Positions 21,035 through 50,770 of a DNA stretch of 64,000 nucleotides are shown here, piece by piece. Every line of letters starts with the position of its first letter. The first letter of the stretch is position 1. Position numbers and translations under genes: made by a program. The DNA is from Patescibacteria group bacterium (GTDB lineage Bacteria; Patescibacteriota; Minisyncoccia; Phycocordibacterales; Phycocordibacteraceae): positions 340,026 to 404,025 of the forward strand of contig JAZKIU010000001.1 in assembly GCA_040384705.1 (NCBI GenBank), in the 5' to 3' direction. The notes beneath the pieces were generated by a model. That model saw nothing but the letters and a program-made list of their open reading frames with translations. It was not told the origin of the DNA and made no database searches.

Positions 21035-21241
21035 ATGAGCACAACCCTTCCGATGACGGGCCAGGATCCTCTGGGTGACCTGGTAAAGCTGATGCAGCGC
21101 TGGTATGACGACGGCATGCCGACCGACATGATAGTCACGCGCATACGGGCCGAAGGCAAGATGTACAAGGAGATGGGCGTTCCTGCGCCCGAGCTCGAAC
21201 GGCTCGAGCAGAATCTGGTGGAGAACGGGCATCCGCACTAA
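21035..21241 (+). CDS. Small hypothetical protein (68 aa)
   Basis: ORF with RBS-like aggagac upstream; no motif. Confidence 0.3.
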   Translation: MSTTLPMTGQDPLGDLVKLMQRWYDDGMPTDMIVTRIRAEGKMYKEMGVPAPELERLEQNLVENGHPH

Positions 21242-27103: not shown

Positions 27104-27128
27104 CCCAGCTCATTGGTATACTTGCCGC

Positions 27129-27692
27129 ATGCGAGAAATAGAAGTTAAGGCCCGGGTCTCGGAGCCAGCCAAGCTGATAGAGAAGCTCGAGGCGCTAGGC
27201 TGCGTATTCACCGATCCGGTAAGCCAGGAAGATATCATCTTCGTTCGAGAGCCTGGTTCGTCGGTGGATGAGTATCTTGAGAATCATCACTTCCTCCGGT
27301 TGCGCACCTTAGGCGATGGTCGAACTATCTTTACCGCCAAGCACAATCCAAGCCGGAAGCATTTCGGCGATACCGTAACGACCGAGCATGAGACCGAGAT
27401 CGCCTCCCGCGACATCATGGCGGATATCATCTTGATGCTCGGCTTCACCGAAGCGGTGCGGGTTACAAAGCATAGGCGCACCGCCAAGCTGGATGAGTTC
27501 GAGATTTGCTTGGACGAGCTCCCTGGCATCGGCTCCTTCATCGAGGTGGAGCGGTGCGTAGCAGATGACTCCGAACACGATGCAATCGTCGCGTCCATGC
27601 ATGCGCTCCTTTCGGAGCTCGGGATTGCGGAGGAGGATAAGAAAGTGAAGCGATACGATATACAGATGCTTGACCTACACTATGGAAATTAA
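27129..27692 (+). CDS. CYTH-domain protein (class IV adenylate cyclase / triphosphatase fold)
   Basis: MREIEVKARV N-terminal ExExK signature. Confidence 0.6.
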   Translation: MREIEVKARVSEPAKLIEKLEALGCVFTDPVSQEDIIFVREPGSSVDEYLENHHFLRLRTLGDGRTIFTAKHNPSRKHFGDTVTTEHETEIASRDIMADIILMLGFTEAVRVTKHRRTAKLDEFEICLDELPGIGSFIEVERCVADDSEHDAIVASMHALLSELGIAEEDKKVKRYDIQMLDLHYGN

Positions 27693-31679: not shown

Positions 31680-31698
31680 AATGGTATAGTAGGGCGTT

Positions 31699-32382
31699 AT
31701 GAGGTGGCACCATCATCGTATCTGGATACTCGCCGTGCTCGCGGTAAGCGGCATCGTGCTCGCATGGCTCATCACCATGACCCCCGTCCCCCCGGTAGTT
31801 GTCGCTCCTCAGCCGGTCGCGACCACGACCCCCGACCTTTCCGGTCGCGCTATCTATGCGAGCGGCGAGCACGGGTTCGCCATAAGCTACCCGGAGACTG
31901 CTCTGCTCGAGGAAATGTTCTCCCCGACTTATCATCTCGCTTCCTCGTGGAGGGCGAATGCACTTGCAGGCTCCGAAGGCACTCCTATCGTCGCGATAAT
32001 CGCATACAGCACCGAGAGCGATAGCTCGTATCCCCGCTACTACAACGCGCAGGTGCGCATCGGTAAGAGCGCGGACGCGAAGGAGGTAACGAACTGCCTG
32101 AAGCCAACGACGGAGCAGGGGGAAGTAGTCCTTGAGGACGTAACGATAGGCGGTATCGTCTGGAAAGCATTCTCCTTCCAGAACGCTGGCATGCAGCAGT
32201 ATGTTAAGGGCGTCAGCTATCGCAGCCTCCATGAGGGTTCCTGCTTCGCGCTCGAGAAGATAGCGGCGGGCTCAAGCTATCGCGATGACCCGGATAGTCC
32301 CGAGGACATAGCGGACGAGGCACTCGAGGCAAGGTACAAGGGCCTCGATAGCATCGTCGAGACCTTCTCCTTCGCTCGATAG
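31699..32382 (+). CDS. Membrane-anchored/secreted hypothetical protein
   Basis: TM IWILAVLAVSGIVLAWLI; no motif. Confidence 0.45.
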   Translation: MRWHHHRIWILAVLAVSGIVLAWLITMTPVPPVVVAPQPVATTTPDLSGRAIYASGEHGFAISYPETALLEEMFSPTYHLASSWRANALAGSEGTPIVAIIAYSTESDSSYPRYYNAQVRIGKSADAKEVTNCLKPTTEQGEVVLEDVTIGGIVWKAFSFQNAGMQQYVKGVSYRSLHEGSCFALEKIAAGSSYRDDPDSPEDIADEALEARYKGLDSIVETFSFAR

Positions 32383-41089: not shown

Positions 41090-41173
41090 CTGCGCCTCCT
41101 TTCCTGTAGCATCTGCTTATTTTGATAACACGAAATTCATGCGCCGCAAACGAATATGGTATCGTCTTAACGC

Positions 41174-43234
<2,061 letters not shown>

Positions 43235-43254
43235 CAGCATGCTAGGATAGCTGC

Positions 43255-44346
43255 ATGAGTCTACGGACGCTCATCTTCTTCCTTATCCTCGGTGCGCTGT
43301 TCCTCTCCATCGGCTCGATGTTCGTCGCGTTCGCGTTCGTGAAGCAGCAGCTCTTCGTACTTTTCCCTGACGCATATACCGGGGACGCCGTGGCGGCGCT
43401 CCAGCTGCTCCTCATCCAGTACTCGGCCATCATCCTCGCGTTCACCACGCTCATCATCGGCATCTCATTCTTCGTGCTCTCCCGGTATATCGTGCGGCCG
43501 CTCCGCGACATGGTCGCCGCCATCGCCGCGTTCTCGGAGCGGAGCGAACGCATCGTGCTCGATAACTTCGCTAATGCGCCGGCGGAGATAAAGCAGCTCG
43601 CGCTGGTGTTCAATGACTTCACGATAAAGGTGGATGAGGCGCATGCGCGCGACGTGGAAGTCTCGAGGGTGAAGTCCGACTTCATCTCGACCGCAGCGCA
43701 CCAGTTCCGTACCCCGCTCACCGGCATACGCTGGGCGCTCGAGGCGCTCGAGAAGGAGCAGCTCACGGAGTCGCAGATAGCGCTGGTGTCGAGCGCGAAG
43801 GACAAGAGCCATCAGCTGGTGAATATCGTGGGCACGCTCCTCGATATCTCCGCCATCGAGTCGGGCAAGAACAAGTACACGTTCGCACCGACCGACCTCG
43901 ACGAGCTCGCGCATGAGATAGCGCAGGAGTTCGCGGAGCTCGCTGCGCGTACCGAGGTCTCCCTCTACTACGTCCCTTCCGAGGATCCGCTCCCGCTCGC
44001 TAAGGCGGACCGCGTGCGCGTCAAATGGATACTGAACAACATCATCGAGAATGCCATCCGCTATACGCCGAAGGGGGGTAGCGTCCGCATCTCGGTCGCA
44101 GGATCGCAGGACAGGGTATACGTGCATGTGCGCGATACGGGCATCGGCATAAAGGCCGAGGACCGGGGCAACATCTTCGAGCGCTTCTATCGTGCCGATA
44201 ACGCGGTCGCCAAGGAGAACGCAGGCAATGGCCTCGGGCTCTATATCGCCCGCACCATCGCGACCGACCACGGCGGGGACCTTAATTTCAGCCCCAATAC
44301 CGACGGTCCTGGCACCACTTTCTCCCTTTCCTTGCCGCTAGCATAG
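43255..44346 (+). CDS. Sensor histidine kinase (2 TM, HisKA, HATPase_c)
   Basis: H-box SRVKSDFISTAAHQFRTPLTGI; N, G1, G2 boxes. Confidence 0.8.
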   Translation: MSLRTLIFFLILGALFLSIGSMFVAFAFVKQQLFVLFPDAYTGDAVAALQLLLIQYSAIILAFTTLIIGISFFVLSRYIVRPLRDMVAAIAAFSERSERIVLDNFANAPAEIKQLALVFNDFTIKVDEAHARDVEVSRVKSDFISTAAHQFRTPLTGIRWALEALEKEQLTESQIALVSSAKDKSHQLVNIVGTLLDISAIESGKNKYTFAPTDLDELAHEIAQEFAELAARTEVSLYYVPSEDPLPLAKADRVRVKWILNNIIENAIRYTPKGGSVRISVAGSQDRVYVHVRDTGIGIKAEDRGNIFERFYRADNAVAKENAGNGLGLYIARTIATDHGGDLNFSPNTDGPGTTFSLSLPLA

Positions 44347-44375
44347 CTTCGTAGCTGCTGTGCTACACTTTTTCC

Positions 44376-44771
44376 ATGTCCGACACTAAATTCATCCTCG
44401 TCGTCGAAGACGATCCCGTGCTCAAGAACCTGCTCGGCCACACCTTCGCCGGCAAGTACCAGACGCTCTATGCGTCGGACGGGAACGAGGCCCTTTCTTT
44501 GTTCGAGAACAATAAGCCATCCATCGTCCTACTTGACCTCATGCTCCCGACCATGGACGGGTTCGCGGTGCTCGAGAGCATCCGGAGCCGCACCGATGAG
44601 CTCAAGAACGTACCTATCATCGTCGTATCGAACCTCGGTCAGCAGAAGGATATTGATAGGGTGAAGGCGCTCGGCGCGAACGAGTACCTCATCAAGGCGG
44701 AGGTCTCAATAGAAGAGATAGTCGCGAAGATGGAAGCGGTGCTAGCCGGTGCCACGCCTCCTGCGGCCTAG
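44376..44771 (+). CDS. Single-domain response regulator (REC only)
   Basis: ILVVEDDP...[12 protein letters not shown]...VSNLGQQKD...[10 protein letters not shown]. Confidence 0.8.
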
Positions 44772-47553: not shown

Positions 47554-48060
47554 GTGCAAAAGGACTATTCGAAGCCTGGTCGGTACGCCTCCGCGGCACC
47601 GGCACGGAATAGGGATGATGGGCATTATGTTCTGAAGCACAAGGACGGTATGGATCATCTCGTTCTGGAGCAACCGAGCGTGCGCGGCATGTGCGCACCG
47701 CTCATGGGCGCGAGCGTGTGGAATGGCGAACGCTGGCGCGCGAAGTATCTTCCGCTTTCGAGCAGCATAAGCATCTACGAGCGAGCGATGCGGGTGCTCG
47801 CGAAATGGAACAATCGTGATGACATCTTCTGCGTGGCGTTCTATCGACGGCAGGTAGCGTATGAGACCGATGTCGTCGTCGATATCCAAGCCGATGTCCT
47901 GTTCCTCATATGCGCCCTCCAAGCACAGCCTCCGCTCACTCGATATGAATGGGGGCTGCTCAAAGAACGAATGCCTGATGGTTCGTGGATACGAAGGCAG
48001 TGCGTCCTGCGCACCATCGATCATGAAGCGGCCAGCGAGGTTCTCCTCGCTGCGGAGTAG
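47554..48060 (+). CDS. Hypothetical protein between uvrA and uvrC
   Basis: ORF with protein-like composition; the competing 333 aa minus-strand ORF is a shadow overlapping uvrC. Confidence 0.35.
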   Translation: MQKDYSKPGRYASAAPARNRDDGHYVLKHKDGMDHLVLEQPSVRGMCAPLMGASVWNGERWRAKYLPLSSSISIYERAMRVLAKWNNRDDIFCVAFYRRQVAYETDVVVDIQADVLFLICALQAQPPLTRYEWGLLKERMPDGSWIRRQCVLRTIDHEAASEVLLAAE

Positions 48061-48130: not shown

Positions 48131-49390
48131 ATGCAACGCGAAGCGCTCAAGAAATTCGACCTGCCCGACTGCCCTGGCGTGTACCTGTTCACGCTCGGTA
48201 AGGGGAAGGCGAAGAAGGTGCTGTACGTAGGGAAGGCGACGAGCCTGCGTGATCGCGTGCGCTCGTATTTCGATATAGACCTCATTGCTACGCGCGGGCC
48301 GCGCATCGTGGATATGGTGACGCGTGCGGACGGCCTCATGCATGAGACCACACCCACCGTGCTCGAAGCGCTCGTGCGCGAGGCTGCGCTCATACGCCAG
48401 TATGACCCTCCTGCGAACTCCATGGGGAAGGACGATAAGACCTTCCTGTATGCCGTCATCACGGACGAGCCAATACCGCGCGTGCTCGCGATACGGGGCG
48501 CTGAGCTCGATTTCGAAGGCATGAAGGTCATCGCGAGTGGCCTGAAGCTCAAGGCTATTCATGGCCCGTTCCCATCCGGGTATCAGCTACGTGAGGGGCT
48601 CCGCCTCATACGCCGCATATTCCCTTTCTTCGATACGCCGAAGCCGGTGGGCGAGGGCAGTAAGTACGCAAAAGGGAAGATAGAGTTCAATCGGCAGATA
48701 GGGCAGTACCCTCGTGATATGAGCCGAAGCGCATACATGCGCTCCATCCGTAACGTGTCGCTCTTCCTCTCGGGACGCGTGAAGACGCTCCGCGCCACGC
48801 TCGCACGCGATATGAAGCAGGCGGCCAAGGAAGAGCGCTTTGAGGATGCGGACGTGATAAAGCGGCAGCTATTCGCCCTCGACCATATCCAGGATGTATC
48901 GCTCATCAAGGAGGATAGGGGCCAGGACAAGCAGGGGCCACGCATAGAGGCGTACGACACGGCGCATATCTCAGGAACGAACGCGATAGGGGTCATGACC
49001 GTCATAGAGAACGGCGTGCCCGTAAAGTCCGACTATCGTTCCTTCCGTATCAAAGGATCAGGCGGGAAGTTGCTGAACGACGACATCGCATCGCTCAAGG
49101 AGATACTCTCTCGCCGCCTAGGACACCCTGAGTGGTTCCTGCCGCGTGCAATCGTGGTTGATGGCGGGAAGACGCATAAGAAGGCGGCGGAAGCAGTGCT
49201 TGCTGAGGTGGGCGTCATGATACCGGTGGTCGCGGTGGTAAAGGACGAGAAGCATCGCCCACGAGAGGTGCTCGGGAGCCTTCGTGCGGGGATATCTGAT
49301 GCTGATGCAGTCCTCGTGAATTCCGAGGCGCATAGGTTTTCCATAACGCTGCATAGGAAGGCGCGGTCGCGCGCTCTTCGTAGTTCTTGA
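48131..49390 (+). CDS. uvrC: Excinuclease ABC subunit C, short form (GIY-YIG + UvrBC + RNase-H-like endonuclease domain, no HhH tail)
   Basis: PGVYLFTLGKGKAKKVLYVGKATSLRDRVRSYF GIY-YIG; 419 aa. Confidence 0.75.
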   Translation: MQREALKKFDLPDCPGVYLFTLGKGKAKKVLYVGKATSLRDRVRSYFDIDLIATRGPRIVDMVTRADGLMHETTPTVLEALVREAALIRQYDPPANSMGKDDKTFLYAVITDEPIPRVLAIRGAELDFEGMKVIASGLKLKAIHGPFPSGYQLREGLRLIRRIFPFFDTPKPVGEGSKYAKGKIEFNRQIGQYPRDMSRSAYMRSIRNVSLFLSGRVKTLRATLARDMKQAAKEERFEDADVIKRQLFALDHIQDVSLIKEDRGQDKQGPRIEAYDTAHISGTNAIGVMTVIENGVPVKSDYRSFRIKGSGGKLLNDDIASLKEILSRRLGHPEWFLPRAIVVDGGKTHKKAAEAVLAEVGVMIPVVAVVKDEKHRPREVLGSLRAGISDADAVLVNSEAHRFSITLHRKARSRALRSS

Positions 49391-49415
49391 CAAATATAGT
49401 TAAACATGCTACGTT
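49387..49415 (+). promoter_or_regulatory. Sigma-70-type promoter: -35 TTGACA, 17 nt spacer, extended -10 TGcTACGTT
   Basis: ttgaca-N17-tacgtt with TG two nt upstream of the -10; overlaps the uvrC stop codon; drives a non-coding region. Confidence 0.4.
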
Positions 49416-49692
49416 GTGAGCGTGGGCCCAGAAACGCCCTATTGATCCTCGAAAGAAACCATTCGCCACAGGGAGACCGCCCATGTACCGCATCCGATTG
49501 CGAAGCTCCTCGTAGAATGAAAACGCTCTGGCGGACGTGACGTCCGCATGCGAAACAAAGGCCACTTAGGGGTTTACGACCGATAGCTACCAGACGCTTC
49601 TGTCCGAGGGGTTCGCCCCAAAGAAGTAAGCAGACGAGCTTGACGGCAATGCCCACTCAAATAATGGCCGCCTGCAACGATGCAGCAAAGTG

Positions 49693-49752
49693 CCCATCCG
49701 GCCATGCCGGATGGGAGAAGGACCCAAGCTCACGCGCGGGTCCTTTTACTTT
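49693..49752 (+). terminator. Tandem hairpins plus T-run ending the promoter-driven non-coding unit, just upstream of ddl
   Basis: cccatccggc-cat-gccggatggg (perfect 10 bp stem) then ggaccc-N12-gggtcc then ttttactttatc. Confidence 0.5.
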
Positions 49753-49795
49753 ATCTATACTTAGTTCTTGCTTGTGCTTGCTATACTTCACCCAT

Positions 49796-50770
49796 ATGAG
49801 AGGCACGGTAGTGGGTGTTCTTCGGGGCGGGCCTTCGAGCGAGCACGAGGTGTCGCTGCGGAGCGGTCACACCATGCTCCGTAATCTGCCCGAGGACGCG
49901 TACACCGCGCGCGATATCTATATAGACAAGAAGGGTGTGTGGCACGAGCGCGGTGTCGCTACCACGCCCGACCGCATTCTTCCTACGCTCGATGTAGCGC
50001 TCATCGCGCTCCATGGGAACTATGGCCAGGACGGGGAAGTGCAGAAGCTCCTGGAGAAGTTCGGAGTGCCGTACACAGGTGCCGACCCGTGGGGCTCGTT
50101 CCTCTCGGGCCACAAGATGATGGCGAAGAATCATGCGATAGAGGCCGGGCTCATGACACCGGCCTACCGGTTCGTGGAGCGAGTGGAATCTATCGATGAC
50201 ATCGTGCTTGAGGTGACGCGCTCCTTCCATCAGCCGGTGGTGGTGAAGCCGGTGGATTCGGGATCATCGGTGGGCGTATCGGTGGTGGGCGGATACGCAC
50301 CGGTGCATCTGGCGGTCACGAACCTCTTCCTCGCAGGCACCAAGGGAGTGCTCATCGAGGAGCTCATAAGGGGCACGGAGGCTACCGTGGGTGTCGTCGA
50401 AGGTATGCGAGGCGAGGGGCTGTATGCGCTTCCTCCGGTGGAGATAGTGCCACCCTCTACTGCTGGATTCTTTTCATACGACGCGAAGTATTCGGGCGAG
50501 AGCCAGGAGATATGCCCGGGACGGTTCTCACGGCCGGTCTCCCAAGCGCTTATGGAAGCCGCGTGCATCGCGCACGCATCTCTCGGGCTTCGGCATTACT
50601 CCCGTTCCGACTTCATCGTCTCCACGAAAGGTATCTATTATCTCGAGACCAATAACGCAGCTGCGGTCGGTATGACGGATGCGTCCTTGTTCCCTAAGGC
50701 GCTCGATTCGGTCGGTATCTCGCTTCCGGAGTTTCTCTCGCACGTTGTTGAGCTCGCTATACGGAAATAG
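49796..50770 (+). CDS. ddl: D-alanine--D-alanine ligase
   Basis: VGVLRGGPSSEHEVSLRSG N-terminus; ATP-grasp; the in-frame upstream extension to 49640 crosses the terminator hairpins so is not coding. Confidence 0.8.
   Translation: MRGTVVGVLRGGPSSEHEVSLRSGHTMLRNLPEDAYTARDIYIDKKGVWHERGVATTPDRILPTLDVALIALHGNYGQDGEVQKLLEKFGVPYTGADPWGSFLSGHKMMAKNHAIEAGLMTPAYRFVERVESIDDIVLEVTRSFHQPVVVKPVDSGSSVGVSVVGGYAPVHLAVTNLFLAGTKGVLIEELIRGTEATVGVVEGMRGEGLYALPPVEIVPPSTAGFFSYDAKYSGESQEICPGRFSRPVSQALMEAACIAHASLGLRHYSRSDFIVSTKGIYYLETNNAAAVGMTDASLFPKALDSVGISLPEFLSHVVELAIRK

Follow-up and report, generated by a model that had tools for sequence, protein, structure and literature searches.

What occupies the 405-nt gap between uvrC and ddl in the genome of a groundwater Patescibacteria group bacterium (assembly GCA_040384705.1, contig JAZKIU010000001.1)? 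The gap is the largest intergenic interval of the window, by which we mean the whole 64,000-nt stretch analyzed here (positions 340,026 to 404,025 of the contig, renumbered from 1). An inspection of the letters alone, hereafter the sequence-only reading, had seen in it a promoter, a hairpin-rich body, and a terminator, and had likened the layout to a transcription-attenuation riboswitch upstream of a cell wall gene or to a stand-alone small RNA (sRNA). As far as sequence comparison goes, the second idea is supported by promoter, terminator, conserved blocks, and compensatory changes, and the first is largely refuted. We conclude, at a probability of roughly 60%, that the gap holds a strain-variable, independent unit for a partly structured sRNA of ~330 nt on the + strand, carried as a dispensable cassette in a hot spot and possibly including a translated open reading frame (ORF) of 10 codons. 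Its transcription and its action as a small RNA, either in trans or as a dual-function RNA, are inferred.

The unit starts with a sigma-70-type promoter at 49387-49415 on the + strand, composed of a -35 element TTGACA (49387-49392), a 17-nt spacer, and an extended -10 element, TGCTACGTT (TGcTACGTT), at 49407-49415. The uvrC stop codon (TGA, 49388-49390) lies inside the -35 hexamer, just as had been described, and the promoter is the single match to TTGACA-N16-18-TAnnnT in the window. A transcript would start a few bases past the -10 box, at ~49421-49423. At the other end stand two + strand hairpins. The first (49693-49715; hairpin 7 of the consensus structure) has 10 bp and a CAU loop; the second (49718-49745) has an 8-bp G+C-rich stem (AAGGACCC/GGGUCCUU) and a 12-nt loop and is followed by UUUUACUUUAUC, so that an intrinsic terminator with the U-tract UUUUACUUU spans 49718-49755 and is 93-98% conserved. 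The tract after the two hairpins reads TTTTACTTTATC, and about 44 nt remain to the ddl ATG, in agreement with the arrangement first noticed. A simple terminator scanner missed this terminator because of its 12-nt loop; the window has further terminators of like style (about 1280-1315 and 2175-2215). The gap has no coding potential in any of the six frames (best values -0.03 to -0.05, versus 0.44 +/- 0.17 for real genes in frame), and the absence of an ORF that had been remarked upon upstream of ddl is thereby confirmed.

Relatives of the unit were reached through members of the Ddl 90% cluster and not by searches with the unit sequence, and exact look-ups of the window's Ddl and UvrC likewise gave nothing; the Ddl of the window is 100% identical to NCBI MES2994846.1. 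Five of 100 related loci carry the unit, in three divergent versions: that of the window, which recurs identically in L097 from a second independent sample; that shared by L098 and L099, from Hainich groundwater (well H51); and that of L100. The uvrC genes of L098, L100, and L001, a locus with a 133-aa protein gene in the gap, are 95-96.5% identical to each other and 87-89% identical to that of the window. It follows that RNA unit and protein gene are alternative contents within one tight clade and that the RNA unit is present in at least two species-level lineages.

Conservation along the unit is very uneven. Because 35-40% of the 4-fold degenerate sites in uvrC, ddl, and the pterin-4a gene differ from the window, unconstrained DNA is expected to be ~62% identical, and the whole unit is 66% identical to L098. 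Identity is 39% in the variable 5' leader (49416-49482), under this benchmark, and 53-54% in the mini-ORF region (49483-49515). It rises to 84% in block 1 (49531-49575; p about 1e-3), 85% in the helix 5 segment (49598-49631; p about 3e-3), 80% in block 3 (49642-49690; p about 4e-3), and 93% in the terminator segment (49717-49760; p about 3e-6). In the promoter, all three variants keep the -35 TTGACA, the TG, positions T1, A2, and T6 of the -10 box, and the 17-nt spacing; the spacer sequence and the other -10 positions vary. Indels of 1 nt fall inside the conserved core and exclude a conserved long ORF on either strand. A putative promoter of its own, an intrinsic terminator, and the lack of a conserved protein-coding frame thus occur together, as would be expected of an sRNA gene.

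The conserved + strand parts are recognizable as local elements. Block 1 opens with the hairpin GCGGACG-UGA-CGUCCGC (49531-49547), already picked out in the sequence-only reading, in which a G-C pair becomes G-U in L098 and L100; AUGCGAAACAAAGGCCA and GGGUUYACGAC follow. Helix 5 (49596-49631) is an irregular stem-loop capped by GGGG-UUCG-CCCC. Block 3, identical in L098 and L100, contains GACGGCAAUGCCCAC..AAAUAAUGGCCGC and the hairpin CUGCA-ACGA-UGCAG (49672-49685), in which the loop varies (ACGA or GUAA) on a stem common to the variants. The conserved block sequences are GCGGACGTGAYGTCCGCATGC and AATGCCCACNNAAATAATGGCCGC, and AUGCGAAACAAA and CACUCAAAUAAU are conserved unpaired stretches. Upstream, a small hairpin on the same strand, GGGC-CCAGAAAC-GCCC (49424-49439), recurs unchanged in L100, whereas L098 has unrelated sequence in its place. 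L100 is in fact a mosaic, agreeing with the window in the 5' hairpin (26/26) and the mini-ORF (91%) and with L098, at full identity, in block 3 and hairpin 7.

RNAalifold, applied to the 3' two-thirds of the three variants, yields 64 pairs in 8 helices with 95.8% of cells paired. Five pairs have changed on both sides with pairing kept, three in helix 5 and two in hairpin 7, the latter in L098 and L100; these pairing values were reached by 11 of 500 column shuffles, and six slid controls gave 0. Such changes suggest structural covariation in the 3' part, although three sequences do not amount to proof. About 15 G-U cells of the consensus structure would be A-C on the opposite strand, which favors the + strand. 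The enclosing helix gagcgt/acgctc, proposed at the outset, is predicted in the window; its 3' partner is not retained in L100, where the 5' strand is the same.

Searches for further copies found none. The unit had no homologue by blastn, nhmmer, or tblastx among 80 genome loci or by blastn among phage sequences; a profile hidden Markov model and a covariance model (R1) run over 750 kb of related loci returned the five carriers only, and no second copy was found in the window or the related loci. A metagenome pattern scan with CGNATCCGATTGCGANGCTCC gave 5 chance matches, all within coding regions of unrelated organisms, and five viral pattern scans gave no match or chance matches only.

Several observations weigh against an sRNA. 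The body without the two 3' hairpins folds like dinucleotide shuffles (z = -0.08), so that the description "rich in stable hairpins" does not hold, and the conserved core gives z = -0.1 to -0.85 in the three variants; the z of -2.6 for the whole unit is due to the terminator region with its two hairpins. The long-range helices 2 and 4 contain broken pairs, and the covariation amounts to 5 pairs from only three distinct sequences, below the reach of formal significance. The boundaries of the conserved blocks were picked with the alignment already in view, and, taken by itself, the promoter match does not reach significance over 64 kb (0.43 expected; one or more in 35 of 100 shuffles). The unit is also very narrowly distributed, dispensable in that sister strains lack it, and placed in no known family.

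The site itself is informative. The window comes from a bacterium of the Paceibacteria/Kaiserbacteria kind, as do all 80 genome loci with related Ddl, which are metagenome-assembled genomes (MAGs); 75 of them show the gap region (the other five begin too near ddl), and uvrC-ddl synteny is kept in 74 of the 75. The gap is essentially empty (<=110 nt) in 41 of these 74 loci, with the uvrC stop followed almost directly by the extended -10 box and ATG of ddl. The remaining 33 hold inserts of 120-1155 nt with unrelated contents, including a Cys-rich protein family, HicAB, several other small genes, and about ten non-coding promoter-to-terminator units. Proteins of the Cys-rich family (126-147 aa) are encoded in the gaps of L001 (3520-3921), L086 (2020-2421), L087 (2053-2466), L089 (2027-2428), L010, L044, L067, and the others of L086-L091. 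The closest cluster representatives by Ddl identity (97, 85, 84, and 82%) have a 133-137 aa gene in the gap, and relatives at 79% and 76% have an empty one. In sister strains the 133-aa gene, with a terminator of its own, is the alternative to the RNA unit. Cassettes join their flanks within the final codons of uvrC on one side and within the terminator tail on the other; the last ~5 codons plus TGA form a cassette-specific left junction, reading ALRSS* in the window, ALRGA* in L098 and L100, and AMRKP* in L001, which has the protein cassette.

Taken together, these data lead us to the following model. Transcription of the + strand would start at ~49421-49423 after TGcTACGTT and end at the 49718-49755 terminator, giving an RNA of ~330 nt, and the separate TGcTATACT box of ddl would give a leaderless ddl mRNA. 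The functional core may be the 3' two-thirds (about 49531-49715), in which local stem-loops and conserved unpaired stretches would be kept by selection. The 5' third appears exchangeable and offers a ribosome binding site (RBS) and a possibly translated, Arg-rich mini-ORF of 10 codons. The whole would be one of several alternative cassettes at a hot spot for recombination or insertion in the uvrC-ddl gap of Kaiserbacteria-like Patescibacteria.

The mini-ORF deserves separate consideration. A Shine-Dalgarno (SD)-like GGGAG (49471-49475) precedes by 7 nt the ATG at 49483, which opens MYRIRLRSSS*, 10 Arg-rich codons ending with TAG at 49515 (+ strand). Its counterparts are MYRIRLRSSFR* in L100 and MFHFRSRSGLAR* in L098, the latter with a frame-keeping 6-nt insertion. 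A further counterpart, MWRIRLRRS*, lies in a cassette that is otherwise unrelated, that of the distant L026 (Ddl 61%), where 26 of 30 nt are identical (z = 7). In these four loci, purine-rich GGGAG, GGGGA, or AGGGG stands 7-8 nt before the conserved ATG, and the peptides share the pattern M-aromatic-basic-hydrophobic-R-x-R-S/R. Synonymous changes occur at Arg codons 3 and 7 (codon 7 is CGA, CGT, CGC, and CGA). The + strands of the non-coding cassettes in the uvrC-ddl gap also hold more mini-ORFs with SD and ATG than their shuffles do (11 versus 4.5 +/- 2.1; p about 0.006). Translation of the mini-ORF is possible on these grounds. The signs of selection are mixed, as the synonymous Arg changes and the frame-keeping indel stand beside 53-54% nucleotide identity and an ORF length that varies; since the segment is so poorly conserved between the window and L098, we regard the peptide as a secondary possibility.

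One might go further and suppose that the unit serves chiefly as mRNA for the micro-peptide MYRIRLRSSS, or has a dual function to which mini-ORF translation is important, with the structured 3' part acting as a stabilizing or regulatory 3' untranslated region. The spacing of GGGAG and ATG resembles that of real RBSs of this genome (e.g., CAGAGGAGACCGCAA-ATG at 21035), a short ORF with ATG persists in all variants, with the L098 insertion in frame, and the synonymous codons, the shared peptide pattern, the module in the L026 cassette, and the mini-ORF enrichment all point the same way. We nevertheless think this unlikely. Few parts of the unit differ more between the window and L098 than this region, most of its changes are non-synonymous, and the length and C terminus of the peptide vary. 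An open frame of 10 codons after an ATG would arise by chance in ~60% of cases by our own estimate, (61/64)^10, SD motifs are rare in this genome (13 of 65 genes), and the strongest conservation lies downstream, in sequence that 1-nt indels make non-coding. That conservation also bears on the opposite supposition, that the unit has no function and is filler, what is left of an older cassette or mobile element decaying in a permissive insertion site, with promoter- and terminator-like ends kept by chance or for insulating uvrC and ddl. A narrowly distributed, orphan-like, dispensable sequence, about neutral in its overall 66% identity to L098, without a thermodynamic signal and located where many unrelated inserts are found, could well be of this kind. 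Filler is improbable all the same, for identity varies sharply along the unit and in several blocks far exceeds the neutral expectation, compensatory changes occur in two hairpins, and the promoter is kept specifically at its consensus positions. Nor is there a coding remnant or any similarity to the 133-aa cassette (z about 0), a gene found nowhere else in the window, and the idea that the unit is a pseudogene of that cassette was rejected. An origin as a transposon or miniature inverted-repeat transposable element with target-site duplication was likewise rejected: a direct repeat of 9 nt, TAGTTCTTG (13 of 16 positions when extended to 16 nt), lies on both sides of the unit in the window and not in L098 or L100, so that it is no transposon signature, and no terminal inverted repeats were shown.

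The remaining alternative is the one with which the sequence-only reading began, namely that the unit is a cis-acting leader of ddl, a riboswitch or leader-peptide attenuator in which regulated read-through of the 49718-49755 terminator controls ddl. Promoter, ~300 nt, terminator, and ddl 44 nt later do follow each other on one strand, and the RLR-type mini-ORF is perhaps reminiscent of leader peptides. However, ddl has its own extended -10 box after the terminator, TGCTATACT (TGcTATACT, 49779-49787), 8 nt before its ATG (49796-49798) and outside the RNA unit, which confirms the nearly leaderless arrangement behind TATACT that had been reported. Box (TGnTATACT) and spacing are the same in relatives, including those with an empty gap, where the box follows the uvrC stop almost directly; ddl is therefore ancestrally leaderless with its own promoter. 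As ddl has no SD, a read-through transcript would probably be poorly translated. There is no room for a leader in the 41 empty-gap relatives, the unit precedes ddl in only 5 of 100 loci, and sister strains hold a protein gene with its own terminator in its place. The mini-ORF stop is 200 nt from the terminator, and no riboswitch family was found in Rfam. Antiterminator pairing is also at chance level in all three variants: the best duplex between body and terminator has -23.6 to -24.7 kcal/mol, equaled or bettered by 77-83% of shuffled bodies. A 14-nt complementarity between the 5' end and the terminator (49416-49429 and 49720-49733) was rejected as well, being at chance level and not kept in L098. 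The leader is thus largely refuted by sequence comparison, and we hold it to be highly improbable.

Against the sRNA as we prefer to read it, a bolder version can be set, in which the uvrC-ddl site of Kaiserbacteria-like bacteria is a dedicated exchange site for small accessory modules. The unit would then be a modular RNA built on a 3' scaffold that is conserved, with 5' modules that can be swapped, among them the Arg-rich mini-ORF shared with L026, and it would be functionally interchangeable with the 133-aa Zn-ribbon-like protein cassette. It may then be, for example, an RNA-based regulator, an immunity factor, or a host-interaction factor. This is quite a doubtful proposition; if true, it would provide the first example of strain-variable riboregulators in ultra-small symbiotic bacteria.

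Known RNA families do not account for the unit. Rfam 15 at the gathering score finds only six tRNAs in the whole window, and no riboswitch family appears at E<=10 on 49300-49900 or at E<=1 on L098 and L100. The failure to recognize transfer-messenger RNA (tmRNA), RNase P RNA, 6S RNA, or signal recognition particle RNA by eye is confirmed by Rfam at E<=10 in 49300-49900 and, for tmRNA, by ARAGORN, which found none in the window or in ten loci with non-coding cassettes. With no model match and with the unit absent from sister strains, it is not a housekeeping RNA. A faint likeness by eye to RNase P P4/J5-15 motifs and to tmRNA tag regions was dropped for want of a model match and because the unit is dispensable. 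The covariance-model scan that the sequence-only reading had proposed thus placed the unit in no family at threshold, and its one sub-threshold match of note is confined to the terminator: RF02353 BjrC68 at 49685-49753, the double hairpin, with 32.3 bits and E = 1.7e-6 in a 601-nt search. Membership was rejected, as the gathering score is 39; two further matches at E<=10 are far under their cut-offs (19.5 versus 114 bits and 14.4 versus 62 bits). BjrC68, an sRNA of Bradyrhizobiaceae, shares with the unit two consecutive G+C-rich hairpins followed by a U-tract. In contrast, the match covers the terminator end without the body, the loop of the first stem has 1 nt here and 14 in the model, and the organism is unrelated. 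The resemblance is generic double-hairpin terminator likeness.

Some features of the site and its neighborhood stand apart from these questions. A TAnnnT (-10-like) box ends 5-9 nt before the start codon of at least 18 of 65 predicted window genes, with gene starts that are our own crude calls (e.g., 27114-27131, 31682-31701, 41157-41176, 43240-43257, 44361-44378, and 49779-49798; several with a preceding TG, as TGnTAnnnT), which suggests leaderless mRNAs at these starts. An SD-like motif is present in only 13 of the 65. The 3' side of helix 5 contains 12 nt (CGCCCCAAAGAA, 49614-49625) complementary at 11 of 12 positions to ddl codons 8-12 (49818-49829), probably by chance. Direct repeats CTnTnCnTAGTTCTTG at 49374-49389 and 49755-49770 flank the unit, and the box CTATACTT is duplicated before ddl (49755-49762 and 49781-49788); neither is repeated in L098 or L100, and they are probably not insertion scars. 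The gene uvrC (48131-49390, + strand) encodes 419 aa in the window and in all relatives, with precomputed Pfam matches to UVR and UvrC RNase H-like domains. A typical UvrC has about 600 aa and a C-terminal (HhH)2 domain, which is presumably absent here. Between uvrA and uvrC, a hypothetical ORF of 168 aa (47554-48060), without a Pfam match, is 68-76% identical to L001 at the nucleotide level, versus 86-93% in uvrA and uvrC, and so evolves much faster than the genes beside it.

Other cassettes at the site have their own characteristics. The 126-147 aa protein is fast-evolving, carries CxC...CxxC motifs, and occurs in lineages from 97% down to 50% Ddl identity; Pfam and PADLOC gave no assignment for the 133-aa form. 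A common origin of our unit with the non-coding cassettes of L006, L008, L015, L020, L024, L027, and L046 was rejected, as pairwise alignments did not exceed shuffles; the exception among non-coding cassettes is the 30-nt mini-ORF module common to the window and L026. A separate non-coding family is found in the Kaiserbacteria-like MAGs of L020 (3521-3990), L024 (1418-1875), and L026 (3577-3985), with a 5' hairpin ACGCCC...GGGCGU, a covarying stem (GGGAC/GUCCC, GGGGC/GCCCC, GGCCUC/GAGGCU) around the conserved loop CGACAUNAGAA, and a conserved SD with a 6-codon ORF (MTNKDN*, MANKDN*, VNKDN*; L008 has MGNKAY*); it had no Rfam match. In L006 (3622-4001), two short tandem promoter-to-terminator units of about 110 and 70 nt are split by an apparent duplicate of the ddl promoter and ATG (CGCTATACTCCTCTACATG), a layout that hints that insertions at the site duplicate the ddl start. 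The gap of L002 (3530-3965), an 81%-identity relative from Hainich well H51, contains a toxin-antitoxin pair that, on inspection of the translation by eye, is HicB/HicA-like.

If our reading is right, the unit is a concrete sRNA candidate, with clear promoter and terminator, conserved blocks, and some compensatory changes, in bacteria that cannot be grown alone, and hence a target for metatranscriptome mapping; covariance model R1 can seed wider searches. A literature search found no paper on small RNAs in the Candidate Phyla Radiation (CPR)/Patescibacteria. The site also points to a persisting recombination hot spot in a compact CPR genome, occupied by an RNA cassette in some strains and by a protein cassette in others that are nearly identical. 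For annotation, the consequence is that the unit should not be labeled a ddl riboswitch.

The unit also resembles three broader kinds of known system, each in part. Attenuation riboswitches and leader-peptide attenuators likewise place a promoter, a structured or non-coding stretch with a mini-ORF, a terminator, and a gene on one strand. Here, in contrast, the gene is leaderless with its own promoter after the terminator, and neither an antiterminator, a known aptamer, nor linkage to ddl across genomes was found. Variable cassettes in conserved intergenic hot spots provide another parallel, with conserved flanks (uvrC and ddl), alternative unrelated contents in close relatives, junctions in the uvrC end and the terminator tail, and mosaic recombination inside the unit, whereas the cargo in our case is an RNA unit and no integrase, att-like repeats, terminal inverted repeats, or target-site duplication were shown. 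Stand-alone bacterial sRNAs share with the unit the intergenic promoter-to-terminator layout of a few hundred nucleotides, the sigma-70-type promoter, the lack of a long ORF, conserved stem-loops and unpaired stretches, a terminal hairpin with U-tract, and optionally an SD with a short ORF; dual-function sRNAs that encode a short peptide include SgrS/SgrT, RNAIII/delta-haemolysin, and SR1/SR1P. The unit differs from these sRNAs in that it has no relation to a described family, is variable in its 5' part and conserved in its 3' part, and alternates by presence and absence with a protein-coding cassette at the same site.

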